DNA from: Candidatus Eiseniibacteriota bacterium
GTDB lineage: Bacteria > Eisenbacteria > RBG-16-71-46 > JABDJR01
Direction: 5' to 3'
NCBI GenBank assembly: GCA_963783375.1
Contig: CAWANH010000028.1
Location: 416,001 to 480,000, forward strand
Length of the DNA stretch: 64,000 bases
Both the position numbers and the translations under genes were made by a program. Every line of letters begins with the position of its first letter. Position 1 is the first letter of the stretch. A model generated the notes under the pieces. The model was not told the DNA's origin. It worked only from the letters and a program-made list of their open reading frames with translations, and made no database searches. This document shows, in pieces, positions 15,395 to 39,757 of the stretch.

Positions 15395-16825
15395 GTGAAA
15401 CCCAAAGTCAAATTCATCGTCGGACTGGTCATCGCCGCGGCAATCCTGGTCGCGACGATCCCGGCATTGGCCATGCGTTCCCTGGACCCATGGCAGATCG
15501 TGCTTTGGATGACGGTCTGCATGTTGAGCGAGCTCTTCTGGGTGAAGACTCCGAGCGGGGACTCCGTTCAGAGCCTCTCGCCGACCGCCCAGCTCGCGGC
15601 GGTGATCATCCTCGACCCGCGACTTGCCCTGATCGTCATCCTTGCCAGCACGACGCTCGGGAATCTCCTGTTCAGACGCCCCAAGTGGTATCGCGCCCTC
15701 TACAACGGGTCCCAGTTGATGCTCGCCAGCGCGGGGGCGGCCCTCGTCTACCACTTGATCAGCGGCACCCACGCGCTCGATGCATTCCAACTCTCGGGTC
15801 AGGCACGGGCGTTGGCCGTGGCCGATACGCTGGCGGATCGGCGGTTCGTGCTCGGCTTTCTCGCGGGAGGCATCGCCTACACCGTCGTCAACAGCACGCT
15901 CATGGCCTGGCTCATGAACGCGATGACCGGCCGGAAGATGCTCGTCCTGTGGAAAGAGAACTGTCTCTACCCCGAGGAAATCCAGAGCACCCTGGCCCTC
16001 ATTCTCCTGACCCCGCTCCTGGTGCTTCTCTACGGCACCCTGGGGATCTCGGGTCTTGTGGTTCTCTTCGCCTGTCTGGCCCTGGTGCACCAGGCCAATC
16101 GGCGCTACCGCGCGGTGGTCCGGGCCCAGGACAATCTCATTCGCTCCGAACGGATGGCGGCCATGGGCGAGATGGCCGAGGAGATCGGGCGGAGCCTGGG
16201 CAACTATCTGAACGAGCTCAAGGTGAGCGCCCATCGCCTGTTCCAGAAGGCCCGTCATGCCGAGACCGAGCGCATACTCAAGAGCGCGGAGATCATCCAC
16301 GTCAACGTGGACAACATGTCGGCGCTGGTGGACGGCCTCGCCGCGTTCTCTCACCGGGAGACCAACCGGGTTCCCACCGACCTCAACGAGCTGATGCGCC
16401 GGACCATCGACTTCGTTCGCCCCCAGAACCGGTTCGATGCCATCCGGTTCAAGTTCACCCCGGATCCGATCCTTCCCACCGTGAACGTCGACCCCGCACA
16501 GCTGCAACAGGTGTTCATCAATCTCCTCAGCAACGCGGCCGATGCCCTGGCCGAAGTGGACCGGCGGGTCAAGAAGATCTTCGTGGAGACGATCTACGAT
16601 CCCAACTCCCAGCGGATCCTGATCACCCTGTGCGACAACGGGCCGGGGATCCCCGACGCCAATCTCGAGCGCATCTTCGAGCCGCACTTCACCACCAAGG
16701 TGACCGGCCACGGGTTCGGTCTTTCCACCGTCTTCCGTATCACCGCCAATCACAAGGGGCGCATCCAGGCCGAGAACGTCCCGGGAGGCGGCGCGCGCTT
16801 CGTCCTCGATCTTCCGAACGCCTGA
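15395..16825 (+). CDS. Multi-TM sensor histidine-kinase-like protein (HATPase_c intact, H-box degenerate)
   Basis: About 7-8 TM N-terminus (MASE9-like); QQVFINLLSNA, DNGPGI, IFEPHFTTK, GHGFGL; H-box reads MAEEIGRSLGNYL; start may be 15359. Confidence 0.85.
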   Translation: MKPKVKFIVGLVIAAAILVATIPALAMRSLDPWQIVLWMTVCMLSELFWVKTPSGDSVQSLSPTAQLAAVIILDPRLALIVILASTTLGNLLFRRPKWYRALYNGSQLMLASAGAALVYHLISGTHALDAFQLSGQARALAVADTLADRRFVLGFLAGGIAYTVVNSTLMAWLMNAMTGRKMLVLWKENCLYPEEIQSTLALILLTPLLVLLYGTLGISGLVVLFACLALVHQANRRYRAVVRAQDNLIRSERMAAMGEMAEEIGRSLGNYLNELKVSAHRLFQKARHAETERILKSAEIIHVNVDNMSALVDGLAAFSHRETNRVPTDLNELMRRTIDFVRPQNRFDAIRFKFTPDPILPTVNVDPAQLQQVFINLLSNAADALAEVDRRVKKIFVETIYDPNSQRILITLCDNGPGIPDANLERIFEPHFTTKVTGHGFGLSTVFRITANHKGRIQAENVPGGGARFVLDLPNA

Positions 16826-17049
16826 TCCCTCCACCGGTCCAGCTGTCGCCATTCATTGACTGGTATCGTCGTCAATAGATGACATAGAGCTATCTACTTG
16901 TTTCCCAGTTAATTAGGTCGGATCATCCAGGTCTGGTCAAAGATCGTTTACGCCTCGAGGCCTGAGCCCCCCTTCCCCCCAGCCCCGTAGCCAATCTGTA
17001 ACTTGTTGCGGATTCAAGCGTTGAGTCAATTCCCCCGGCCCCATTGCAT

Positions 17050-17066
17050 TCGGCACGATGGTTGCG
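17050..17066 (+). promoter_or_regulatory. Putative sigma54 (-24/-12) promoter
   Basis: TCGGCACGATGGTTGCG has exact GG-N10-GC spacing and is close to the TGGCACG-N4-TTGC consensus. Confidence 0.75.
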
Positions 17067-17133
17067 TATTAGGTGGGCGTGGTTGGCGCGAGTCTCTGAA
17101 AACCAACGAAGAACAAGGAAGGGGGAACGCAAC

Positions 17134-17226
17134 ATGTTCAGCATCATCAATCACGCCATGTCGCTCACCGGTGCGTGGGAGTGGCTCGGTGCCTGGGAAT
17201 GGCTTGGCGCCTGGGAGTGGATCTAG
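17134..17226 (+). CDS. 30-aa Trp-rich peptide MFSIINHAMSLT-GAWEWL-GAWEWL-GAWEWI
   Basis: Purine-rich RBS AAGGAAGGGGGA; the three 18-nt repeats differ almost only at synonymous third positions; hairpin 17234-17256 right after the stop. Confidence 0.75.
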   Translation: MFSIINHAMSLTGAWEWLGAWEWLGAWEWI

Positions 17227-17383
17227 CCAAGCGGGCGGGGGCTCCTAGCCCCCGCCAGGTTATCTGATCGCTTCGGCCGCTGGAGGGGGAGCTTCCGAGC
17301 CCAACGGAAGCATTGACCGGCGACCGGACCAGTTTGGAGCCTGGGTGGTGCAAGCTTCCGGGAACGCACTGCCCGCGGCTCGT

Positions 17384-17421
17384 CTACGGGGCCAATCCCC
17401 TGTGGCCCCGTAGTTTTTTTT
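17384..17421 (+). terminator. Intrinsic terminator
   Basis: CTACGGGGCCA/TGGCCCCGTAG stem followed by T8. Confidence 0.9.
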
Positions 17422-17598
17422 GTATCCCACCTCTTCCCACCCTGCTCCGGGCCGCCTGGAAGTTCAACCCCAGGGCGCCGCACTGGGGGCCAATTCCCAC
17501 GATCCCGCCTCCCGGCCCCTGGCCGCGCAAGCCACCCTGGATCCGGTCGATATAGAGGGTGATATCCGAGAACCCGAATCCCGACCCGAAGGACATTC

Positions 17599-19212
17599 AT
17601 GCCGACGCCGCCGACCCTGGTGGATGAGACCTCCCTCGTAGCCGTCGATCTCACCGCGCCCGCCCCTCTGGCCGCCGCGGCGAACCTGCTCCTGCGCTCG
17701 GCGATGGCCTCGACCCGGATTCGGGAGGTGGAGATACTGGCCGCGGAGGAGATCCCCCGCGAGCGGGCCCGGCGCCTGGCCGAGGTCTTTCGCAAGCTCA
17801 CCGCCGACGAGTCGGTCGAGATGCTGATGGCGGCGGGAAAACTGGCCCTGCGCCAGGAGCCGGCGGGTCTCAGAACCCTGCTGGGATTCCTGGAGGTGAA
17901 GCGGCCCGGGGTGGAAGTGCTCCGCCAGCTTCGCCTCCTCTCCAGCCTCGAGCGCGTCTCGCTCAGGATCGTGGCCGGCAGCTGGACCGAGCCGGACTCC
18001 TCCGGGCAGGTGGAATCGGTCTACCCGATTCTGGAGGCCATCCAGGAGGGAGCGCGCATCGGCGCCCTGGACCTGGGACTGGAACAGCTCCCGCGTTCGG
18101 TTCCGGCCGTGCGCTCGCTCTACGACCACGTCCGTCGCTGGTTCCGGTCCATGGAGACGGAGCTGGAGTCGGGACGGAGGCTCGCCCCCGACAGCCTCAA
18201 CTTCATCGCCCAGCTGGCCATGGTCGAGATCTCCCTCATGGAGAAGCGGGTATCGGGCCTGGCCGGCTCCATCGACCCCTACGACGTTCGCGGGATGGGG
18301 CGCTTGATGCCGATCCTGAGTCGCTACGACCAGGACATCGAGCACATGAAGAGCGTGGTCTCCCGGCTCACCACCTACCAGCCCTTCTTCGACCGCCTCC
18401 TGACCCTGGAACACGCGCTCTCGGGAAGCGAAATGGACAAGATCCAGAAGCTCCTTCTACGCGATCCGGTCGGCTCCCCCGTCGGGTTGATCCTCAAGGG
18501 GATGCGTGAGAACCCGATCCTGGACCGCGAGTTCACGTTCATGGTTTCCCTGGTCCATCAGATCGCGACGCTCCGGAGCCAGGTGATCGAGAACACGCCC
18601 CGCCTCGACCTGCTGTCCGTCCTGCTCCACGTGGTGCGCCACGGACGGGGGGGAACCGGCGTCCGGTTGATCATGGAGGAGGAGGTGACCGACCGGATCT
18701 GGCCCACGGTCCAGAACTGGGGGGTGCTACGCCGGTCCCCAAGCTCGCTCGAGGTGCGCTACCGCGAGGATCGGGCCCTGGACTTCATCCAGGCCGACGG
18801 GACCCCGAACCTCCCCGAGCGCCCCGAGGAACGGAAGGCGCCGGATCTCACCCTGAAGGAGCTGGTGCGGCTGCAGCTCGGGAACGAGCCCTTCATTCTG
18901 GGGGTCCTGGACAACCCCAAGGCCACCTCGGTCCCCGGCCTGGTCCCCATGATCGTGAACTCCACGCGGAGCCTTCGCATCCTGGACCGCATCATGAGAG
19001 ATCGCACGCTCTATACCGGATCCGCCAACAAGGAGGTGCCGAGACTCCTCCTGACCAGCCCGGCCCGCATTCCCCTCAACAGCCTGAAGCGGTTCATCCA
19101 CGTGCGATTCGTGACCAAGATGGATCTGTCCAGGCTCTCCCGGCATGGGGGAGATATCCGGTCCGAGGTGAGGCGGGAGATCGACAAGTACCTGGCCAGC
19201 CTGCGGAAATAG
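17599..19212 (+). CDS. Hypothetical helical protein, 537 aa
   Basis: Long ORF with host-like codon usage and RBS AAGGA; no recognised catalytic motif. Confidence 0.75.
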   Translation: MPTPPTLVDETSLVAVDLTAPAPLAAAANLLLRSAMASTRIREVEILAAEEIPRERARRLAEVFRKLTADESVEMLMAAGKLALRQEPAGLRTLLGFLEVKRPGVEVLRQLRLLSSLERVSLRIVAGSWTEPDSSGQVESVYPILEAIQEGARIGALDLGLEQLPRSVPAVRSLYDHVRRWFRSMETELESGRRLAPDSLNFIAQLAMVEISLMEKRVSGLAGSIDPYDVRGMGRLMPILSRYDQDIEHMKSVVSRLTTYQPFFDRLLTLEHALSGSEMDKIQKLLLRDPVGSPVGLILKGMRENPILDREFTFMVSLVHQIATLRSQVIENTPRLDLLSVLLHVVRHGRGGTGVRLIMEEEVTDRIWPTVQNWGVLRRSPSSLEVRYREDRALDFIQADGTPNLPERPEERKAPDLTLKELVRLQLGNEPFILGVLDNPKATSVPGLVPMIVNSTRSLRILDRIMRDRTLYTGSANKEVPRLLLTSPARIPLNSLKRFIHVRFVTKMDLSRLSRHGGDIRSEVRREIDKYLASLRK

Positions 19213-24009: not shown

Positions 24010-25134
24010 TCATCGCCGGCCGCCGCTCACCACCATCAGGGTGAGGTCATCGTCAAGATCGCCCTTGGGGACGAACTTGCGAACCGCCCCGGTGATGCGA
24101 TCGGCGAGCCCGGGGCCGTCCAGGCGGCGGCCCGCCTCCACCAGCGAGAGGAGGCGTTCCCGACCGAACTCCTCATGCCCGCGGTGGGCCTCGAGCAGGC
24201 CGTCGGTGACCAGGACCAGGCGGTCCCCGGCCGCCCAGGGGAGCCTCGCGGAGGACCACGAAGCGTCGTCGAAGAGGGCGCTCACCATGGGCCCGGTGGA
24301 ATCGAGCGGCGCGGTCCTTCCGTCCGGGGTCTGGCGCACACCCTCCGGATGCCCGGCGTTCACGTACTCCAGCGTTCCTTCGCCCGGGGTCACCCGCGCG
24401 CAGAGCAGGGTGGCGAACAGCGCGGGGGGGAAGCCCTGGAACCCGGCCCGCACCCGACGGACCACGGCCAGCGGATCATATCCCTCGGCGTGGGAAGCGC
24501 CGAAAGCCGCCTTCACGATCCCGGTGAGGAGGGCGGCGGACACCCCGTGACCCACCACGTCGGCGACCAGGAACGAGGCCCCGCCTCCCGCGGCCGCGTA
24601 GTCGTAGAGATCCCCGGCCACCGGATCGTGGGGAAGGAGCCGCGCCGCCACCCGGAGCCCGGCCGCCCCCGCGTCTCCCGGCGGGAGGAGGCTCCGCTGG
24701 AACCGCGCCGCCTCCTCGAGTTCCCGGGTCAGGTCCCTGAGGCGCCGGCGCTTGTCCTCCTCCAGCACGCGGATCTCGTTGCACCGCTCGACCAGGGTCA
24801 GGAGCACCTCCCGGTCGAAGGGTTTCTGGATGAAGTAGAACGCCTTTTCCCGCACCGACCGCACCAGGTCCCGGTCCAGATCGTAGACGCTTCCCGTCAT
24901 CAGGATGACCTGGAGGTGCGGCATGCGTTCCTTCAACCGCTTGAGCAGGGTGAAGCCGTCCACTTCCGGCATGCGGAGATCCAGGATCGCCATGTGCGGG
25001 CGGAAGCTCGAGGCCTCGGATTCCGCGCGCGCGGAGTCGCGGAGCGCGCGCACCTCGTAGTCGGCGGCGAGGACCGACTCCACCGCGAGAAGCATTTCGG
25101 GATCGTCGTCCACGATCAGGATCCGGGGCTTCAT
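24010..25134 (-). CDS. Response regulator receiver + PP2C (SpoIIE/RsbU-type) phosphatase
   Basis: ILIVDDD, LDLRMPEVDG, KPF; GDLYD, ADVVGHG, NAGH, TDGLLE, DDLT. Confidence 0.92.
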   Translation of the reverse strand: MKPRILIVDDDPEMLLAVESVLAADYEVRALRDSARAESEASSFRPHMAILDLRMPEVDGFTLLKRLKERMPHLQVILMTGSVYDLDRDLVRSVREKAFYFIQKPFDREVLLTLVERCNEIRVLEEDKRRRLRDLTRELEEAARFQRSLLPPGDAGAAGLRVAARLLPHDPVAGDLYDYAAAGGGASFLVADVVGHGVSAALLTGIVKAAFGASHAEGYDPLAVVRRVRAGFQGFPPALFATLLCARVTPGEGTLEYVNAGHPEGVRQTPDGRTAPLDSTGPMVSALFDDASWSSARLPWAAGDRLVLVTDGLLEAHRGHEEFGRERLLSLVEAGRRLDGPGLADRITGAVRKFVPKGDLDDDLTLMVVSGGRR

Positions 25135-26808
25135 GACCCGTCCCCCGGCGCCGCCGAGACCACGGGAATCCACATCGCCACCCGGGTCCCCTCGCCCTCG
25201 CGGCTCCGGATGCGGAGGCGCCCCCCCACGTCGGCGAGAATGGCCTGGCAGATCGAGAGTCCTAGCCCGGTGCCCGAGGTCTTGGTGGTGAAGAAGGGCT
25301 CACCCACCCGGTTCAGGTTGTCCTCCGAGATCCCCGAACCGGTGTCGGTGACCTCCACCGTCACCTCGCCGTCCTTCAGGACCCCGGAGATCTCCATCCC
25401 GCCGCCGCTCGGCATGGCGTCCTTGGCGTTTCCGATCAGGTTCAGGAAGAGCGAGGCGAGATCGTTCTGGCCGCAGCGCACCGCGGGGAGATCGGCGGGA
25501 AGCCGGACCTCGATGACGATCTGCCGCTTCTGGAGGGCCTCGGAGTAGATCCCGAGCGCGCTTTCCACCGCCCGGCGGAGGTTTCCGTGGCCCACCGCCC
25601 GCCGGCCGGAGCCCCTGGCCACGGTGAGCATGCCGTCGAAGATCCGCGGCAGGTCTGCACCGCCTTCTCGCTGCTCCGAAGCCGCTCCGCCAGCGGCGCG
25701 GGCTCGGCGGTTCCCGCCTCGACGTCCGCCTGCATCTGCTGGATGGTCAGGAGCACCGCCCCCAACGCGTTGTTCACGTCGTGGGCGATCCCGCGGGCCA
25801 CGTTCACGATGGTCTGGCGGCGCTGGGCGTCCCGGATCCGCTCGTGATAGGTCTCGCGCTGCACCGAGTACTGGACGGCCAGGGAAACCTGGGGAACGAA
25901 GGCGTCCACCAACCGGGCCTCGTAGGTTCCGAAGGCGCCCGGAGCGAGGCCGGCCACGCGCAATACCGCCACCGTGTCCTCCGGGTGCGGAAGGGGGCGC
26001 AGATCAGGGACCCTTCGGGGGGGATACCTCCGGCGGGGTCGGGGCCGGGGTTCGTCTCGATGGTCTTCGGATCGAACCCCGAGGCCTCGGCGGAGGTCCA
26101 CACCCCGTTCCGGCGATCAAAGAGATGAACATCGCCGTTCCGCCCCGCGGGAATCAGGTTCGCGGGGAGGGGTCGCCGGGTGCCGATCCGGGTGCTCTTT
26201 CCCTTGGTCCACGCGATCTGCTCGGCCACCAGCTCCAGCTCCGTCGCCCCCGGCCGGGCCAGGAGCAACGACGAGGAGTGGTCGTAGCGGATGAGGGAAC
26301 GCAGCCCGTGGAGGATCGTGTACAGGAGGTCCTTGGGCTCGTATTGCTCCATGAGCTTCCGGTCGATCCGCTCCCGCACCTCGTGCACCCGGCGCTCGTC
26401 GGATTCGCCCACGATGTCGGAGACCGCGGAGGCGATGGCCCGCACCGCCTGCCGGCAGTGGCGGACCGGTGACAGCGTCGGGCTCCGAAGGCTCAGGAGG
26501 CCCCAGGGGCGCTCTTTCCGGGTGACGATCCCGATGAACACGTTGGAGGGGATTCCGCGGGGGCCGTGGCGGAGGCACTTCGCCAGCATCTCCACGTCCC
26601 ACGTTCCGGAGGACGGCGCGCGAAAGAGGATCTCGGGAAAGTCCCGTCCCGGCGCGAGCACCGCGAAGCAGCCGTCCTCGCTCCCGGTGAGCTCCATGGC
26701 GGTGCGGAGCGCGTACCGGCCGGCGGCGGGCGGGTCCCGGAGCCCGGAGAGGAGCTTCCGCAGGGAGTCGACGGTGCTCCAAAGGCCCAGCTTGAGATCG
26801 GATTTCAT
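25131..26808 (-). CDS. GAF-containing sensor histidine kinase, split by two apparent frameshifts
   Basis: IAHDVNNAL H-box, NLIGNAKDA, DTGSGI, FFTTK, GTGLGL spread across three frames with shifts near 25988 and 25646. Confidence 0.8.
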
Positions 26809-27077: not shown

Positions 27078-28270
27078 ATGAGACGAATCGTCCTGATCCT
27101 GACCGTTTCGGTCTTCGTTCTCCTGTTGGGGTGGCGCCTGGTCGACCACCTCCGTTCCTCCGGGGGGGATTCCCAGGGGCGCTCGGGCCGGCCCGCGGTC
27201 GCGGTCACCGTGGCCGAGGTCTCGGTGGGGCCGATCCAGGACGTCCGGCTCTTCACCGGCACCGTGTTCCCCCAGTACCGATACCTCGTGGCCACCAAGG
27301 TGCCCGGCCGGGTGGTGGCGCTCGGAAAGCGGATCGGCGACCGCGTGCGGGCGGGCGAGGAGATCGCGCGGCTCGACGACGCCGAGTACCGCCAGGCCGA
27401 GGCCGAGGCCCAGGCCAACCTGGACATCGCCAAGGCCGGCCTGGAAGAGGCCCGGGCGTCCCTGGCCCTGGCCGGGAAGGAGATCGCCCGGACGCGGTCG
27501 CTCCGGGAACGCGATCTCATCTCCGACGCCGACGTGGACAACGCCAGCTCCCGCTTCGACGCCCAGAAGGCGCGCACCCAGCTCGCCGAGGCCCAGGTGA
27601 GCCAGCGCGAGGCCGCCCTGGAGGCCTCCCGGATCCGCTGGGCTACACCCGGCTCAAGGCCGCGGAACCGGGGTACGTGGGCGAACGCCTGGTGGACGAG
27701 GGGGCGCTCCTCCCGGTGAACGCGGCGGTGGTTTCCGTGGTCGGCCTGGACACGGTGTTCGTCCGGGTCTCGGTGATCGAGCGGGACTACGGTTCCATCC
27801 GGCCCGGCCAGACCGCCGAGGTGGAGGTGGACGCCTTCCCCGGCCGGCGCTTCTCCGGCCGCGTGACCCGGCTGGCGCCGGTCCTGAAGGAGGAGTCGCG
27901 GGTGGCCGAGATGGAGGTCGTGGTGCCGAACCTCGGCCACGAGCTCAAGCCCGGCATGTTCTCCCGGGTCCGGGTGGTGATCTCCTCGGAGACCGAGGCC
28001 CGGTCCGTGCCGGCGGCGGCGGTGGTCCGGCGGGACGACCACGACGCGGTGTACATGGCCGACGAGGCCGAGGGGGTGGCGCGTTACGTGCCGGTCACCC
28101 TGGGCATTCACGCCGGGTCCCGGGTGCAGATCCTGGAGCCGAACCTCGAGGGTCGGGTGATCACCCTGGGCCAGCACCTCCTGGAGGATGGGAGCCCCAT
28201 CCTCCTCACCGCGTCCCACGGGCCGGCCTCGGACACCACCCGGGCGCCCGGCGCCGGTGACGCGCCGTGA
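27078..28270 (+). CDS. RND efflux periplasmic adaptor (MFP), apparent frameshift near 27638
   Basis: N-terminal TM, GDRVRAGEEIARLDD, coiled coil; continues in another frame as LGYTRLKA...LKPGMF...VPAAAV. Confidence 0.85.
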
Positions 28271-31200
28271 GCCTCGCCCGGGGGCCCATCCAGCGCCCGA
28301 TCCTGACCACCATGATCTATCTCATCGTGATCACGGTGGGGTTGGTCTCGTTCTTCCGCCTCTCCATCGATCTCATGCCCGAGATCACCTTCCCCACCAT
28401 CAGCATCCGCGCCCAGTACGGGAACGTGGGGCCGGAGGAGATGGAGGACCTGGTCACCCGGCCCATCGAGGAGGCGGTGGCCGCGGTCCAGGGGGTCGAG
28501 GAGATCAACTCGGTCTCCACCGAGGGGAACAGCTCGGTCCGGGTCTCGTTCGATTGGGGAGCCGATCTGGACGTGGCCGCCAACGACATCCGCGACCGCA
28601 TCGACCGGATCACCGGCCGCCTCCCCGAGGACATGGACCGCCCCACCATCCGGAAGTTCGATCTCTCCGCCTTCCCGGTCATGATCCTCGGGGTGTCGAG
28701 CGACGTGAACCCCCTCGATCTCCGGCAGATCGTGGACGACCAGGTGAAGTACCGCCTGGAGCGGGTGGCCGGGGTGGCCGCGGTGGACATCTGGGGCGGT
28801 CTGACCCGGGAGATCCACGTCGACCTGGACGCCGACCAGGTGAAGTCCCTGGGGCTCTCCACCTCGGACGTCCTGGACGCCCTGAACCGGGAGAACCAGA
28901 ACATCCCCGCCGGCACCGTCCAGACCGGGAACCTCGACGTTCTCATCCGGACCCAGGGCGAGTACCTGAGCCTGGACGAGATCCGGAACACCGTGGTGGC
29001 CATCCGTGAAGGCTCGCCCATCCGCATCTCCGATTTCGCCCGGGTCGAGGATTCCTGGGAGGAGGTCACCCGCCGGGTGCGGGTCAACGGCAAGCCCAGC
29101 CTTCGGCTCTCCATCAACAAGCAGTCCGGCGCCAATACGGTGGAGGTGGCCCAGGCGGTGAAGGCGGAGATGGCCCGGATCAACCGGGACATTCCCCAGA
29201 TCCAGCTCCTCCCCCTGATCGACACCTCCACCTACATCGAGAACTCGATCCGGAACGTGGGGCGGGCCACCGCGGTGGGCGGCATCCTGGCCGTGGTGAT
29301 CCTCCTCCTGTTCCTTCGCAACGTCTCCAGCACGGTGATCATCGCGACCGCCATTCCGGTCTCGATCATCGCCACCTTCGGACTGATCTACTTCGGCGGG
29401 TTCACCCTGAACCTGATGACCTTCGGGGGCCTGGCCCTGGGGATCGGCATGCTCGTGGACAGCGCCATCGTGGTCCTGGAGAACATCTATCGATTGCGGG
29501 AGAGCGGGCTCTCCCCCCGGGACGCCGCGCTCCAGGGGACCGAGGAGGTGGGAAGCGCCATCGTGGCCAGCACGTTGACCACGGTGGTGGTGTTCCTCCG
29601 GTGGTGTTCATGCGGGGGATCTCGGGGATCTACTTCCAGCAGCTCGCCTTCGTGGTGGCGTTCTCTCTCCTCTGCAGCCTGGTGGTGGCGCTGACCCTGG
29701 TGCCGATGTTGAGCGCGCGGTTCCTCCGGTTCCGGGGAGCGGTGGCGGGCGGATCCCGCCGCGGCCCGGGCCGGGTCTACGACGCCAGCGAGGCCGCGTT
29801 CAAGGCGGTGGAGCAGGGTTACGGCCGGGTATTGCGGCGGGCCCTTCGTCACCGCCGCATGGTGATCCTCTCCGCGCTGGCGCTCTTCGTGGGGTCGGTG
29901 TTGCTGCTTCCCACCATCGGGGTGGACTTCATGCCCGCCTCCGACGAGGGCGAGGTGCGAGTGGATCTCGAGATGGCGGTGGGGACGCGCCTGGACGTGA
30001 TGGACCGGATGACCCGCTCGGTGGAGGAGATCGTCCGGGCCCAGGTGCCGGAACTCCAGTCCATCCTGGTGAGCGTGGGAGGCGGGGGATGGCGGGCCTC
30101 CGGCGGACACACCGCCAACATCCGGGCCACCCTGGTTCCCCAATCGGAGCGGCGCCGGAGCAGCGAGGAGATCGCCAACGCGCTCCGTCCCGCGCTCTCG
30201 TCGCTCCCCGGGGTCACCGTCCGCACCCGGGCGGGACAGGGCCTCTGGATCCTCCGGATGGGGCAGGGGGACGGCGACAACCTGAGCCTGGAGATCCGGG
30301 GATACGACCTGGACACCGCCCGGGAGCTGGCCCAGCAGGTACGGGCGGCGGTGGCCGAGGTCCCCGGGGTGAGCGACGCCCGGATCAGCCGGGAGGAGGG
30401 ACGGCCGGAGGAGGTGATCCGGATCGACCGCCAGAAGGCGGCGGACCTGGGGTTGAGCGTGTCGCGGATCGGCGAGGCCCTCCGCACCGCGGTGGGAGGA
30501 ACCTACGCTTCCAACTACCGCGAGGCCGGAAAAGAGTACCGGATCATGGTGCGGCTGAACGAGGACGACCGGCGCGACCTCTCGAACCTGCTCGACCTCA
30601 CCGTGACCAACGACCGGGGCCGTCCGGTGGTGCTCCGGAACGTGCTGGTGTCGGAGCCGCGGACGGGTCCGGTGCGCCTGGAGCGGAAGGACCAGGAGCG
30701 CACGGTGTTCGTCTCCGCCAACTTCACCGGCCGCGACATGGGGTCGGTGGTGGGCGACGTTCGCGAGGCGATCGGCCGGATCCCGGTGCCCAAGGACTTC
30801 TCGGTGATCATCGGCGGCGACTACGAGGAGCAGCAGAAGGCGTTCCGGGAGCTGTTGCTGGGACTGATCCTGGCCCTGGTCCTGGTCTACATGGTCATGG
30901 CCGGCCAGTTCGAGTCCCTGCGCGACCCGTTCGTGGTGCTCTTTTCGGTGCCGATGGCGGTGATCGGGGTCGCGCTGGCCCTGGTCCTGACCGGGATCCC
31001 GTTCAGCCTGAACGCCTACATCGGCTGCATCATGCTGGGCGGAATCATCGTGAACAACGCGATCCTCCTGGTGGACTACACCAACCTGCTCCGGCGCCGC
31101 GACAAGCTCCCCCTCCACGACGCCATCACCGTGGCCGGCTCCCGCCGGCTCCGCCCGATCCTCATGACCACCTTGACCACGGTTCTGGGGCTCCTGCCGT

Positions 31201-31382
31201 TGGCCTTCGGGGCCGGCGAGGGCGGCGAGGCCCAGGCCCCCCTGGCCCGGGTGGTGATCGGCGGCCTCACCACCTCCACCCTGGTCACCCTGGTGCTGAT
31301 CCCGGTGGTCTACTCGCTCTTCGAGGAGGGTTGGCGGGGACGGCGGAGGAAGGCCGCCGAGGACTCGTCCCAGGTGGCATGA
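28267..31382 (+). CDS. RND efflux permease (AcrB/AcrD/AcrF family), apparent frameshift near 29598
   Basis: [38 protein letters not shown](P), [24 protein letters not shown]. Confidence 0.9.
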
Positions 31383-37168: not shown

Positions 37169-37359
37169 GGGAATTCCCTCTTTCAAGAGCGCACCGGAGG
37201 TTATAGGCTCCAAGCGGCAATTGCCTGGGGTTTCGCCTATCCTAGCATACCAATCATACGTTTGGTATCCGCATCCCCGCCGAACCCCTAATTCACTGAA
37301 AAAGAACGACTTCTGCCCGGCGCCGGGTGGCCGAACGCCCCCGGCTGCGAGGGAAAACC

Positions 37360-38871
37360 ATGAATACAGACACCCAACCCACCGTGCTGACCCGGGGCGT
37401 CGAGCTGGATCTCACCCCGGACCAGGTCTTCCAGAATCTCCACCGGATGCCCGGCTTCTTCTTCCTGGACAGCGCCATGGCCGGCCACGAGCTCTCGCGC
37501 TGGTCCTACATCGGGGTGAATCCGTTCCTCACCCTGCGCAGCCGTGGGGAAGGCATGGACCTGGTGGAGGGGAAGAAGATCACCCATCGGTTCGGGAACC
37601 CCCTGGAAATCCTGAACGCCGAGATGAACCGGATCCGGCTCACCGGCGGGAGCCCGCTGGTTCCCTTCTCCGGCGGCGGGGTCGGCTACTTCGGATACGA
37701 GCTGGGCCGATCCACGGTGGAAGTGGAGCTCCCGGTGGCCGACGATCTCGGCCTTCCCGAGATGGTGTTCTCCTTCTATCGCACCATCCTGGCCTACGAG
37801 CACAAGACCCGGCGGTGGTACGGCGCGGCCCTGGATATCGCCGGGGGCCGCGGCACCACCATCCGGAAGCGCCTGGGGTCGGACATCGAGAAGATGCGGG
37901 AGCTGGCCACCAAGATGCACCGGGGCTCTCCGGCCACCGCTTCCGCCGAGAGCGCGGAGGAGGGGGCCGAAGCCGTCGACGAAGTGGTGATCCCCACCGG
38001 CCACCGGATCGAAGTGGACGGGGTGAGCGCGCTCTCCACCATGAGTCGCGACCAGTACCTGGCCGCGGTGCGGAAGATCAAGGAACACATCGCCGCCGGC
38101 GAGATCTACCAGGCCAACCTCACCCAGCGCTGGAGCATCCCCTACGAGGACGAACCGGGGAAGATCTACACCGCGCTCCGGAAGGCGAGCCCGGCTCCGT
38201 TCGGGGTCTACATGAACACCGGCGAGGCGGTGATCGCGGGATCGTCCCCGGAATGCTTCCTGTCGGTGGCGGGGCGCTCCATCGAGACCCGGCCGATCAA
38301 GGGGACCCGCCCGCGCGGCGCCGATCCCGACGAGGACGCGAGGCTCCGTCGCGAGCTGGAGGACAGCCAGAAGGACAAGGCCGAGCTCACCATGATCGCC
38401 GACCTGGAGCGAAACGACCTCGGACGGGTCTCCACCCCGGGCTCGGTCCGGGTGGAAGAGCTGCACCGGCTCGAGACCTTCTCCAACGTGCACCACCTGG
38501 TGTCGATCGTGCGCGGGGAGCTTCGAGGCGACGCGAACCTGAAGGACATCCTCGACGCCACCTTCCCCAGCGGCTCCATCACCGGCGCCCCCAAGAAGCG
38601 GGCGATGGAGATCCTGGCCGAAATCGAGGGCACGGTGCGCGGCCCCTATACCGGGGCCATGGGGTTCATGGGGCTCGACGGGTCCATGGAGCTGAACGTG
38701 GCCATCCGCACCCTGGTGCTCTCCCAGGGAAAGGTTCATCTCGGGGTGGGCGGCGGCATCGTGGCCGACTCGGAGCCCGAGGCGGAGTACGAGGAGTGCC
38801 TGGCCAAGGCCCGGGCCATGCTGACCGCGATCCGCGAGGCTCGCTCCCCGGAGCCGACCCCGGCGTCCTGA
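37360..38871 (+). CDS. pabB: Aminodeoxychorismate synthase component I (chorismate-binding family)
   Basis: YQANLT, SSPECF, TRPIKGT, KDKAELTMIADLERNDL, SITGAPK, NVAIRT, GGGIVADS. Confidence 0.85.
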   Translation: MNTDTQPTVLTRGVELDLTPDQVFQNLHRMPGFFFLDSAMAGHELSRWSYIGVNPFLTLRSRGEGMDLVEGKKITHRFGNPLEILNAEMNRIRLTGGSPLVPFSGGGVGYFGYELGRSTVEVELPVADDLGLPEMVFSFYRTILAYEHKTRRWYGAALDIAGGRGTTIRKRLGSDIEKMRELATKMHRGSPATASAESAEEGAEAVDEVVIPTGHRIEVDGVSALSTMSRDQYLAAVRKIKEHIAAGEIYQANLTQRWSIPYEDEPGKIYTALRKASPAPFGVYMNTGEAVIAGSSPECFLSVAGRSIETRPIKGTRPRGADPDEDARLRRELEDSQKDKAELTMIADLERNDLGRVSTPGSVRVEELHRLETFSNVHHLVSIVRGELRGDANLKDILDATFPSGSITGAPKKRAMEILAEIEGTVRGPYTGAMGFMGLDGSMELNVAIRTLVLSQGKVHLGVGGGIVADSEPEAEYEECLAKARAMLTAIREARSPEPTPAS

Positions 38872-38872
38872 G

Positions 38873-39757
38873 ATGCCTCACGTCTACCTGAACGGCGAGA
38901 TCGTCCCGGAGGCGCGGGCTGTGCTCCCGGTCAACGACCGGGCGGTGCTGTTCGGGGACGGGGCCTACGAGACCATGCGGAGCTACGCGGGGACGTTCTT
39001 CCGGCTCCCCGGGCACCTCCGCCGGCTCCGCCACACCCTCCACGGGATGCAGCTCGATCTCCCGGTGACCGACGCCGAGATCTCCCGGGGAGCGCTGGCG
39101 CTGCTCCGGGCCGACGGGCTCGCCGACGCCCGGGTGCGGCTCACCGTGACCGGAGGCCTCTTCGACGGGGCCATCCGGCTCCGGCGGTCCCACCCTCCGA
39201 ACCTCTTCCTCACCGCGGTCCCCCTGGTCCCCCCTCCCGCCGACGGCTACCGGAACGGGGTGGACGTGGTGCTTTCCCGCTGGCCGGTCCACAGCGACTC
39301 GCCGCTCCCCCGGATCAAGACCGTGAACCGGCTCATGCACCTCATGGCCAAGGAGGAGGCGCTGGCCGCCGGGGCCTGGGAGGCGCTGTTCCTGGACGAG
39401 GCCAGAGGGTTGCTGGAGGGGACCGCCACCAACGCGTTCTTCGTGGTGGACGGGTCGCTCCGCACCGCCTCCCTGGAAGGGCCGTTGTTGGCGGGGGTGA
39501 CCCGCGACGCGGTCCTGGAGGTGGCGCGGGGGGAGGGCGTGCCGGTGATGGAAGGGCGAGTCGCCCCCGAGGACCTCACTGAGGCCACCGAGGCCTTCCT
39601 CACCAGCACCACCCTCGAGCTGCTCCCCATCCGCGCGGTGGACGGGCGGGCGGTGGGCGACGGCCGTCCGGGCCCGGTGTGGGAGCGGCTGATCCGGGCC
39701 TACCGGGCGCTGGTGAGCCGCGAGACCGGGGTGGCTTTGGATCCGATGCCGGTTTAG
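38873..39757 (+). CDS. Aminotransferase class IV (likely ADC lyase, PabC-like)
   Basis: FGDGAYETMR, HLRRL, IKTVNRL, EGTATNAF, LAGVTR; adjacent to pabB. Confidence 0.85.
   Translation: MPHVYLNGEIVPEARAVLPVNDRAVLFGDGAYETMRSYAGTFFRLPGHLRRLRHTLHGMQLDLPVTDAEISRGALALLRADGLADARVRLTVTGGLFDGAIRLRRSHPPNLFLTAVPLVPPPADGYRNGVDVVLSRWPVHSDSPLPRIKTVNRLMHLMAKEEALAAGAWEALFLDEARGLLEGTATNAFFVVDGSLRTASLEGPLLAGVTRDAVLEVARGEGVPVMEGRVAPEDLTEATEAFLTSTTLELLPIRAVDGRAVGDGRPGPVWERLIRAYRALVSRETGVALDPMPV

Follow-up and report, generated by a model that had tools for sequence, protein, structure and literature searches.

A conserved tryptophan-repeat peptide gene beside a histidine-less MASE9 sensor in Eisenbacteria

Introduction

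Is a 30-residue peptide composed largely of three nearly alike tryptophan-rich units a genuine gene product, and if so, what might it do beside the gene for a membrane sensor? The question is raised by a small open reading frame (ORF) in a 64,000-nucleotide stretch of the genome of a Candidatus Eiseniibacteriota bacterium (GenBank assembly GCA_963783375.1, contig CAWANH010000028.1, positions 416,001 to 480,000 of the forward strand), hereafter the window, to which the coordinates below refer unless another contig is named. The ORF lies on the + strand at 17134..17226 (ATG at 17134, TAG at 17224-26) and comprises 30 codons and a stop. A sequence-only reading of the window had placed an ORF encoding MFSIINHAMSLT-GAWEWL-GAWEWL-GAWEWI at exactly this position, and the product, MFSIINHAMSLT(GAWEWL)2GAWEWI, is as it described. 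That reading took the peptide for a new signal or for the precursor of a peptide made on the ribosome and modified after translation (a RiPP). The comparisons presented here indicate a conserved peptide gene tied to a sensor that has lost its phospho-acceptor histidine, and they lead us to favour, tentatively, a role for the peptide as a partner of that sensor.

Conservation of the small ORF as a protein

Because the members, about 25 in all, keep frame, length, stop and residues yet differ at synonymous sites, we conclude from this comparison that ORF 17134-17226 is a real gene, conserved as a protein. These relatives comprise the 8 genomes of the window's Eisenbacteria family (the host genome, G000, included), 5 distinct metagenome loci and 13 database proteins. 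The genomes and metagenome loci together form the 13 loci to which most counts below refer; 12 of them were aligned, and G053, the most distant member, whose sensor domain shares 43% identity with that of the window, was handled separately as the thirteenth. The host genome itself measures 4.73 Mb in 29 contigs, with 69% GC and 97% completeness.

The sequence-only reading had proposed a search for small (GAWxW)n ORFs next to homologues of the neighbouring sensor. Looking upstream of homologues of the 537-aa gene that follows the peptide and downstream of sensor homologues, we found the small ORF in 8/8 genomes of the family. The exact pattern WEWxGAWEW occurs in 3/206 genomes of the phylum. 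A pattern of I-I, 7 codons and GxWxWxGxWxW retrieved 15 stretches from 185,579 species genomes, 6 of them true members that are the same Eisenbacteria genomes already found, and 28 stretches from a metagenome collection, again with 6 true members, 2 of them identical. A profile of 12 peptides compared with 1.84 billion representative proteins gave 13 matches at E <=0.001, all of the same build. The gene is present in single copy in the host genome, where a search for paralogues found none. No match was obtained for the peptide in NCBIfam, Pfam, PDB or the ESM Atlas, nor for the unit in Rfam, and a literature search with the peptide motifs found no paper describing them, the text matches being chance strings only.

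The shared build consists of a hydrophobic 12-residue head, approximately M-(F/L/I)-(G/S)-I-I-x-K-Φ-Φ-x-L-x, followed by 2-3 units of the form (G/D)-x-W-x-W-Φ. Each unit carries one acidic residue (A/T/Q-W-E-W, E-W-Q-W or D-W-V-W), the peptide as a whole is anionic and without a signal peptide, and the stop falls directly after the last unit in 12/13 genomic and metagenomic loci, at a position common to related loci. Length varies by whole units, with 30 codons in 10/12 aligned loci and 24 in 2/12 through in-frame loss of one 18-nt unit (in G052, exactly the first repeat of the G051 arrangement); the gene of G053 has 31 codons. A Trp-zipper, that is a three-stranded sheet of W-x-W strands joined by turns, was considered as a fold and is not what AlphaFold2 returns: with a 12-sequence alignment the program gives a single helix over residues 2-29 (pLDDT 70.3, pTM 0.26), a model too weak to decide the matter or to settle the fold.

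Selection on the repeat units

The earlier suggestion that selection acts on the peptide is borne out by the substitution pattern. Nei-Gojobori counts over 10 full-length genes (45 pairs) give proportions of synonymous (pS) and nonsynonymous (pN) differences of 0.58 and 0.165 in the W-x-W core, and of 0.475 and 0.37 in the head. Judged by the two pN values, the core is more constrained than the head, which is the reverse of a typical RiPP precursor. Within single peptides, the repeats differ from one another with pS 0.43-1.0 and pN 0-0.08 in 11/12 loci, the exception being G047, whose third unit is decayed. Since repeats of the same peptide differ at most synonymous sites, they are by this measure old at the DNA level and have not been homogenised.

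The units nevertheless change together. Residue 2 of the unit is identical across the units of any one peptide and is A, T, Q, E or G between lineages, and in one relative Ile replaces the first Trp in all three units. The clearest case is the comparison of the host genome with metagenome locus L110 (M110). Neither repeat 2 nor repeat 3 differs at any synonymous site between the two, and third bases, counted by eye from the printed codons, are equal in 9/12 cases at the same repeat position and in 7/24 at other positions, each repeat having kept its own synonymous pattern. Yet all three repeats have GCx (Ala) at codon 2 on one side and ACx (Thr) on the other, which implies three parallel replacements. 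Similarly, G048 has the same codon 4 pattern as the host genome (GAG/GAA/GAG), yet carries CAG at codon 2 in all three units. We conclude from these codon patterns that the units are held alike by selection on the product and not by DNA homogenisation. Likeness stops short of identity: with a residue 6 that varies and spacers of 1 to 6 residues between them, the units are no exact hexapeptide copies.

A neighbouring sensor without the phospho-acceptor histidine

Upstream of the peptide, on the same strand at 15395..16825, lies a gene for a 476-aa membrane sensor with a MASE9-like domain, a degenerate DHp domain without the phospho-acceptor His and an intact HATPase_c domain, as identified with Pfam and alignments. 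The MASE9 match (PF20972) is modest, at 28.2 bits against a cut-off of 24.3 over residues 106-272 of the long ORF, and HATPase_c scores 78.6 bits; the kinase core is closest to those of AtoS, ZraS and FixL. The sequence-only reading had called this gene a receptor, which stands insofar as the gene is real and tightly linked to the peptide, being found about 290-320 nt upstream of it in all 13 loci; that it lacks the phospho-acceptor His was not part of that description.

The His of ZraS (PDB 9jfj) and FixL, within GVAHEIRNPL, aligns with an Arg in EEIGRSLGNYL of the sensor. Across the peptide-linked orthologues this column is R/Q/V/E/L (12/12), no invariant His exists in the DHp region, and the N, G1, F and G2 boxes are intact (NAADA, DNGPGI, FEPHFTTK and GHGFGL are conserved). 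In homologues from other families, which share 30-37% identity and have no peptide gene downstream, the His is kept in 16/16 within the motif GEMAAEIGHELNN, and the host genome also encodes a His-bearing paralogue with a HisKA match (contig C29, ~664377-665801). In these alignments, the peptide gene is found with exactly those sensors that have lost the His: 12/12 linked sensors are without it and 17/17 unlinked ones have it. His loss in the peptide-linked sensor is, as an alignment-based result, a new observation of this analysis. With the His absent, the sensor could not signal as an ordinary histidine kinase.

Homologues of the sensor domain are widespread, occurring in 176/206 genomes of the phylum (a tally that includes G072, flagged as unpublished, on which no other result depends). 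A tree of the 12 sensor domains, considered for covariation of the sensor with peptide type, is unresolved at depth. As to the input domain, the part of the published description of MASE9 drawn on here suggests ligand binding within the membrane and names no ligand.

Promoter, upstream sites and transcript

The peptide gene is preceded by a sigma54-type -24/-12 element, CGGCACGATGGTTGC, at 17051..17065 (+ strand; GG at 17052-53, GC at 17064-65). The GG-N10-GC arrangement noted from the sequence alone is thus present, the element is close to the consensus TGGCACG-N4-TTGCW, and the GG and its spacing are kept in 13/13 loci and the GC in 12/13 (GT in G047), while the 4-nt spacer between the -24 and -12 blocks varies among the 13 loci. 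Taken alone, a match to such an element is not beyond chance: TGGCACG-N4-TTGC at 1 mismatch is expected 0.78 times per window, and GGCAC[GA]-N4-TTGC has 20 sites in the host genome against about 30 expected from base composition. What is beyond chance is the conservation of ORF, promoter, upstream sites and hairpins across 13 orthologous loci, and because single motifs lie within chance expectation, the case rests on that conservation. A consensus scan of 16700-17700 found no sigma70-like sites.

Further upstream, we identified tandem YGTC-N9-TTGAC sites as predicted activator-binding sites, using an 18-bp matrix built from 12 loci including the host's own. Site 1 (16844..16861, + strand) is the best matrix match in the 4.7-Mb genome; site 2 (16867..16884, + strand), about 265 nt before the ATG, is the second-best genome-wide and is the main conserved site, lying at -257 to -271 from the ATG in 12/12 loci. 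A weaker site 3 (16934..16951, + strand), in which the host genome has TTTAC for TTGAC, aligns with a second conserved GTC..TTGAC block that exceeds the chosen threshold at -186 to -203 in 7/12 loci. Similar YGTC-N9-TTGAC-like sites are present in G053. The inverted repeat ATTGAC-N10-GTCAAT at 16855-16876, to which attention had been drawn earlier, exists as described, with the 3' end of site 1 as its ATTGAC arm and its other arm in the middle of site 2; the arrangement is specific to the host genome, and the conserved elements are the tandem sites. A search for a wider regulon of these sites was unproductive, the third-best matrix match (C28:1782640) having no -24/-12 element nearby.

In promoters of this type activator sites are expected about 100-250 bp upstream, and the transcript is expected to start about 12 nt after the GC, hence at ~17077 here, which would place the upstream sites about 135, 200 and 225 nt before the transcript start. 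Sigma54 dependence and activator binding at the upstream sites are inferred from these motifs. The host genome encodes one rpoN (one Sigma54_DBD match) and about 25 full Sigma54_activat matches in a whole-genome Pfam-type domain search, 0 of the latter falling inside the 64-kb window. The ribosome-binding site, GGAAGGGGGA at 17117..17126 (+ strand), ends 7 nt before the ATG; it is strong, as had been noted, and its AAGGGGG-type block is conserved in the 12 aligned loci.

Downstream of the stop, the hairpin and T8 terminator described earlier are both present, at 17234-17256 and at 17384-17413 followed by T8, and comparison places another hairpin between them. Hairpin 1 (17234..17256, + strand) is GC-rich, begins 8 nt past the stop and was recognised by folding and comparison; its position is occupied in all 12 loci and in G053, where the sequence is unrelated. 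Hairpin 2 (17384..17421, + strand), with a 10-bp stem at 17384-17413, CCCC in the loop and then T8, is a predicted intrinsic terminator and the only terminator-like site in a consensus scan of 16700-17700. A run of at least 6 T directly follows hairpin 2 in 6/11 loci (the host genome, G050, L110, L103, L106 and L121), and a T-rich run follows hairpin 1 in G048, G049, G051 and G052; in G049, G051 and G052 it takes the place of the run after hairpin 2, and in G048 there is a T-run after both hairpins, the second 6 nt beyond hairpin 2. By these sequence criteria, every genome has at least one terminator, and it is not the same one. The terminator position appears to have moved between hairpins 1 and 2 while both hairpins stayed.

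Two metatranscriptome runs from two studies contain short contigs of close relatives that cover only the peptide unit (together 17087..17327, + strand). In X11, a 210-nt contig corresponds to 17087-17246 plus 50 nt running on through hairpin 1; in X5, a 231-nt contig corresponds to 17097-17327. Both begin 10-20 nt past the predicted start. Their differences from the window are confined to the head (N6K, M9V, I5L) and the variable 3' part, and the core is unchanged. A DNA contig, by comparison, bridges 16964-17379. Neither run gave other cover from this organism within 16600-17900, an interval that includes the 3' end of the sensor gene and the 5' end of the downstream gene, although the absence of a contig is no measure of expression. 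The RNA contigs hint at a short, relatively abundant transcript and are not proof of one. With its own -24/-12 promoter and upstream sites, its own terminator or terminators, and RNA contigs confined to it, the unit is self-contained, as first proposed.

A possible ligand or modulator of the sensor

The reading that we tentatively favour is that the Trp-repeat peptide is a ligand or modulator of the neighbouring His-less MASE9 sensor in a feedback loop. Several lines converge on this pairing, namely the coding conservation, the units kept alike, the promoter, the RNA contigs, the linkage, the loss of the His and the suggestion that MASE9 domains bind ligands in the membrane. In such a scheme, sigma54 RNA polymerase would start near 17077 once an enhancer-binding protein occupied the YGTC-N9-TTGAC sites, and the strong ribosome-binding site would direct translation of an mRNA of about 345 nt. 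The product, a hydrophobic head followed by 2-3 acidic W-x-W units, would lodge at the interface of the membrane and there bind MASE9, and the His-less sensor, through its ATP-binding domain, might relay the signal by protein contact in a NifL-like or decoy-like manner. The result would be a feedback or autoinduction loop.

Several observations weigh against this proposal. His loss and peptide gain belong to one clade and thus amount to a single evolutionary event instead of 12. Synteny within the family also extends to most of the neighbouring genes, whose common order is amylase, phosphodiesterase, M15 peptidase, sensor, peptide, 537-aa gene, zinc-finger protein, TPR protein and adenosine deaminase, and only G053 breaks the wider synteny; because the whole neighbourhood is kept within the family, adjacency alone is weak evidence. 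Two facts make the linkage more telling: in G053 the M15 gene is not upstream, yet sensor, promoter and peptide are still together, and in two other families the 537-aa gene occurs with neither sensor nor peptide. Also against the proposal, no activator gene lies near the unit, the RNA contigs come from relatives and cannot show ends, strand or level, and the peptide modelled as a helix is not amphipathic, so that its behaviour at a membrane is a guess.

As proposed, the unit works like known small-protein and peptide partners of sensor kinases, and it is a member of none of those families. One such case is MgrB-PhoQ of E. coli, in which a very small protein, expressed under signal-dependent control, likewise acts on a membrane sensor (for the peptide here, such action is the proposal). 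The two are unlike in sequence: MgrB is built of a transmembrane helix and a periplasmic part, whereas the peptide described here is an acidic Trp repeat encoded next to its presumed sensor, under a sigma54-type promoter, and the sensor is without a phospho-acceptor His. ComC/ComD, AgrD/AgrC and PlnA are peptide-pheromone systems in which the peptide gene lies beside that of its sensor kinase. They resemble the unit in coupling a short peptide gene to a membrane sensor and in having lineage variants, the pherotypes. Here, in contrast, there is no Gly-Gly leader, no AgrB-like or C39-ABC processing gene and no response regulator gene, the sensor lacks the His, and the host belongs to a candidate phylum outside the Firmicutes.

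A precedent for output by contact is NifL-NifA, in which a kinase-like sensor acts without phosphotransfer. Like NifL, the sensor combines a GHKL ATP-binding domain with the lack of a working phospho-acceptor, in a host rich in sigma54 activators. Unlike in that system, no activator gene is adjacent and the input domain is MASE9, not PAS; the score of the sensor against the NCBIfam nifL model (79 bits) is far under the cut-off of 242, and the likeness is limited to the shared kinase core.

A bolder form of the proposal, which we consider rather unlikely, would make the unit a peptide autoinduction circuit of new design in a candidate phylum. A kinase-dead receptor would sense the acidic W-x-W units, the first known MASE9 ligand, in the membrane and control a sigma54 activator through direct contact, and peptide and receptor would have co-diversified into lineage-specific variants (A, T, Q or E at unit position 2) like pherotypes.

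Alternative readings

The original interpretation as a processed hexapeptide or RiPP, extended to any secreted multi-unit signal, would make the head a leader; enzymes whose genes lie elsewhere would excise or cross-link the W-x-W units, and the product would be exported. The layout of a leader with repeated C-terminal units and the W-x-W core motif, present two or three times per peptide, would suit such a product, and parallel change of all units is what one would expect if identical units were released or read by one enzyme. Repeat-bearing Trp precursors with radical S-adenosylmethionine (SAM) enzymes are known: in the portions of the literature drawn on here, the triceptides (WprA/WprB) and darobactin (W-N-W-S-K-S-F) share with the peptide a short precursor, C-terminal repeated units and W-x-W or aromatic-x-x motifs, and, unlike here, a radical-SAM gene adjoins the precursor. 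Here the peptide is not accompanied by any gene for a radical-SAM enzyme, a peptidase or an exporter. The remark that no maturase or exporter is visible in the window holds, and it extends to every one of the 13 loci, where none is linked. An MFS transporter and an RND pump lie 5-14 kb away in the window and are not conserved with the unit.

A search of the host genome for rSAM-SPASM, C39 and P450 domains found two rSAM-SPASM genes and one C39 domain, none tied to the peptide; P450 was not found. Both rSAM-SPASM genes belong to exopolysaccharide-type loci that are duplicated and also carry a subtilase, YjbH-like genes and sugar transferases, and the single C39 domain stands outside any ABC transporter. 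A double-glycine leader has by consensus a GG/GA/GS cleavage site; no Gly-Gly type site was found in the peptides, in which the residues before the first Trp are G-A, G-T, G-Q or G-E. The fast-evolving head (pN as given above) is unlike typical recognition leaders, and the variable spacers and residue 6 fit poorly with release of uniform units. As far as gene content tells, nothing supports maturation or export of the peptide, and we regard a secreted or modified product as doubtful.

The loci turned up by this search have features of their own. The duplicated exopolysaccharide-type locus (G000:C9:1-11095 and G000:C28:1785000-1802000; L172, L173) encodes a subtilase with a FlgD_ig tail, YjbH-like genes, a 123-aa ORF of no family, the rSAM-SPASM protein, an NTP-transferase and a sugar transferase, and contains a TGGCAT-N5-TTGCA element. 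A weak match to the upstream-site matrix near that element was rejected as a further regulon member, being AT-rich and only 47 nt upstream. At G000:C28:1429142-1430516 (L171), two divergent -24/-12-like elements stand just upstream of a gene for a stand-alone C39-peptidase-like domain, whose neighbours are OmpA/DUF4398 genes and an AbiEi/AbiEii pair.

Alternatively, the peptide might be a stand-alone effector, for instance surfactant-like, acting in biofilms or antimicrobial, in the manner of phenol-soluble modulins, with the sensor unrelated to it or only part of its regulation. In keeping with this would be its small size and lack of a signal peptide, a hydrophobic head (M-x-G-I-I-x-K), a promoter of its own that is strongly regulated, and RNA contigs in a place where none cover the neighbouring genes. 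It would leave the perfect tie with sensor His loss unexplained, and the peptide is anionic and has no linked exporter; we therefore think this explanation unlikely.

A third possibility concerns the RNA. The structured 3' part of the transcript might be a regulatory RNA for which the ORF provides a second function, as in RNAIII/delta-haemolysin or SR1/SR1P, and such a role would be compatible with a peptide function. Between hairpins 1 and 2 lies hairpin 3 (17336..17381, + strand), a covarying stem in which 5/8 inner pairs change on both sides, with a conserved apical GCTTCCGGGAA (17353-17363). All 10 pairs of the hairpin 2 stem are intact in the 11 sequences, with compensatory changes at 3 of them. 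For hairpins 3 and 2 together in the 11 sequences, 93.6% of cells are paired, compared with 33-47% with slid partners, and 9/20 pairs change on both sides, compared with 1-3 in slid controls; 0/500 shuffles reach the observed values. The apical GCUUCCGGGA of hairpin 3 and the CCCC loop of hairpin 2 (UCCCCU) are more conserved than the stems. Moreover, a covariance model of the two hairpins finds the element once per genome, only in this unit, in 7 family genomes (its own source set) and in 0/144 others of a 151-genome class sample.

Dual-function small RNAs, and C-rich loops that bind ribosome-binding sites, have been described (PMC4152353), and the sections of that account used here invite comparison in the short regulated transcript, an ORF of about 26-39 codons, conserved hairpins and one C-rich loop; promoter type and peptide differ. 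The loops GCUUCCGGGA and UCCCCU resemble anti-Shine-Dalgarno seeds. Pairing of the loops with the unit's own ribosome-binding site was examined and rejected, the duplex energy across 12 loci being no better than that of shuffles (z -1.2 to +2.1). Against an RNA role, the 3' hairpins may merely terminate transcription and stabilise the RNA, and Rfam holds no match; we judge it improbable.

Far weaker is the notion that the downstream 537-aa gene is controlled by transcription attenuation, with the ORF as a Trp-codon leader peptide. The trp leader peptide and TnaC are encoded by short Trp-codon-rich ORFs followed by hairpins, and the unit offers a superficial parallel, with 6 Trp codons in 18, then hairpins and a T-run, then a gene on the same strand. 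Here, however, the peptide sequence itself is under selection: residues other than Trp (G, E/Q and the head) show conservation and parallel change, and one relative, as noted, has Ile for the first Trp throughout. Hairpins 1 and 2 persist in minimum-energy and centroid folds, with no antiterminator or other alternative pairing found that would undo either, and the unit has a promoter of its own of the enhancer-dependent type. For the downstream gene there is neither a Pfam family nor a link to Trp metabolism, and it occurs in 4 genomes of two other families (G036, G037, G054 and G055; 47-50% identity) in a different context, where neither peptide nor sensor was found beside it. An attenuator is for these reasons very improbable.

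That the ORF is a chance frame or a non-coding repeat has next to no likelihood, since tandem 18-nt repeats reading GxWxW, which do occur elsewhere in the phylum (G014, G034), lack the start, stop and synonymous divergence that are all kept here across about 25 members. The other GxWxW matches in the phylum, 17 loci in all that were checked, proved to be chance matches or tandem DNA repeats. Two are near-perfect tandem 18-nt repeats in which one frame reads GxWxW, GVWAWV x5 at L028 (G014:C35:42249-42335) and GPWPWS x4 at L032 (G034:C348:63-113), and both are probably simple tandem repeats without relation to the peptide family; neither has a start or a stop.

Neighbouring genes in the window

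The 537-aa gene (17599..19212, + strand) belongs to an orphan family without a Pfam domain. Its product has 61 relatives, all labelled "hypothetical" and seemingly confined to Eisenbacteria, and no match in the ESM Atlas; the AlphaFold2 model is confident (pLDDT 87.3) and mostly helical. We saw no evidence of a link between this gene and the peptide.

Other signalling and metabolic genes occur at greater distance. A second signalling pair lies about 7 kb from the unit at 24013-25631 (- strand), where a response regulator with a SpoIIE/PP2C phosphatase output is followed by a HATPase_c fragment; the kinase gene there may be split or miscalled. An RND efflux set occupies 27131-31379 (+ strand), with an HlyD-type adaptor followed by AcrB as two overlapping ORFs (28267-29691 and 29601-31379), an arrangement that suggests a frameshift or an assembly error. 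At 37327-39754 (+ strand), a chorismate-binding enzyme precedes a class IV aminotransferase (PabB/PabC-like), a pair unconnected with the Trp-rich peptide.

Conclusions

Annotation routinely overlooks genes for small peptides, of which few are known beyond model bacteria. The unit described here carries an unusually complete set of conserved control elements, which makes it directly testable in a surrogate host. Parallel residue change combined with kept synonymous patterns is a rare, clean indication that the units have to remain alike, and it points to one shared binding partner. More generally, the tie between the peptide and the loss of the sensor His offers a concrete candidate ligand for MASE9 domains, as well as a natural case of a kinase-dead sensor that is possibly wired to sigma54 control.

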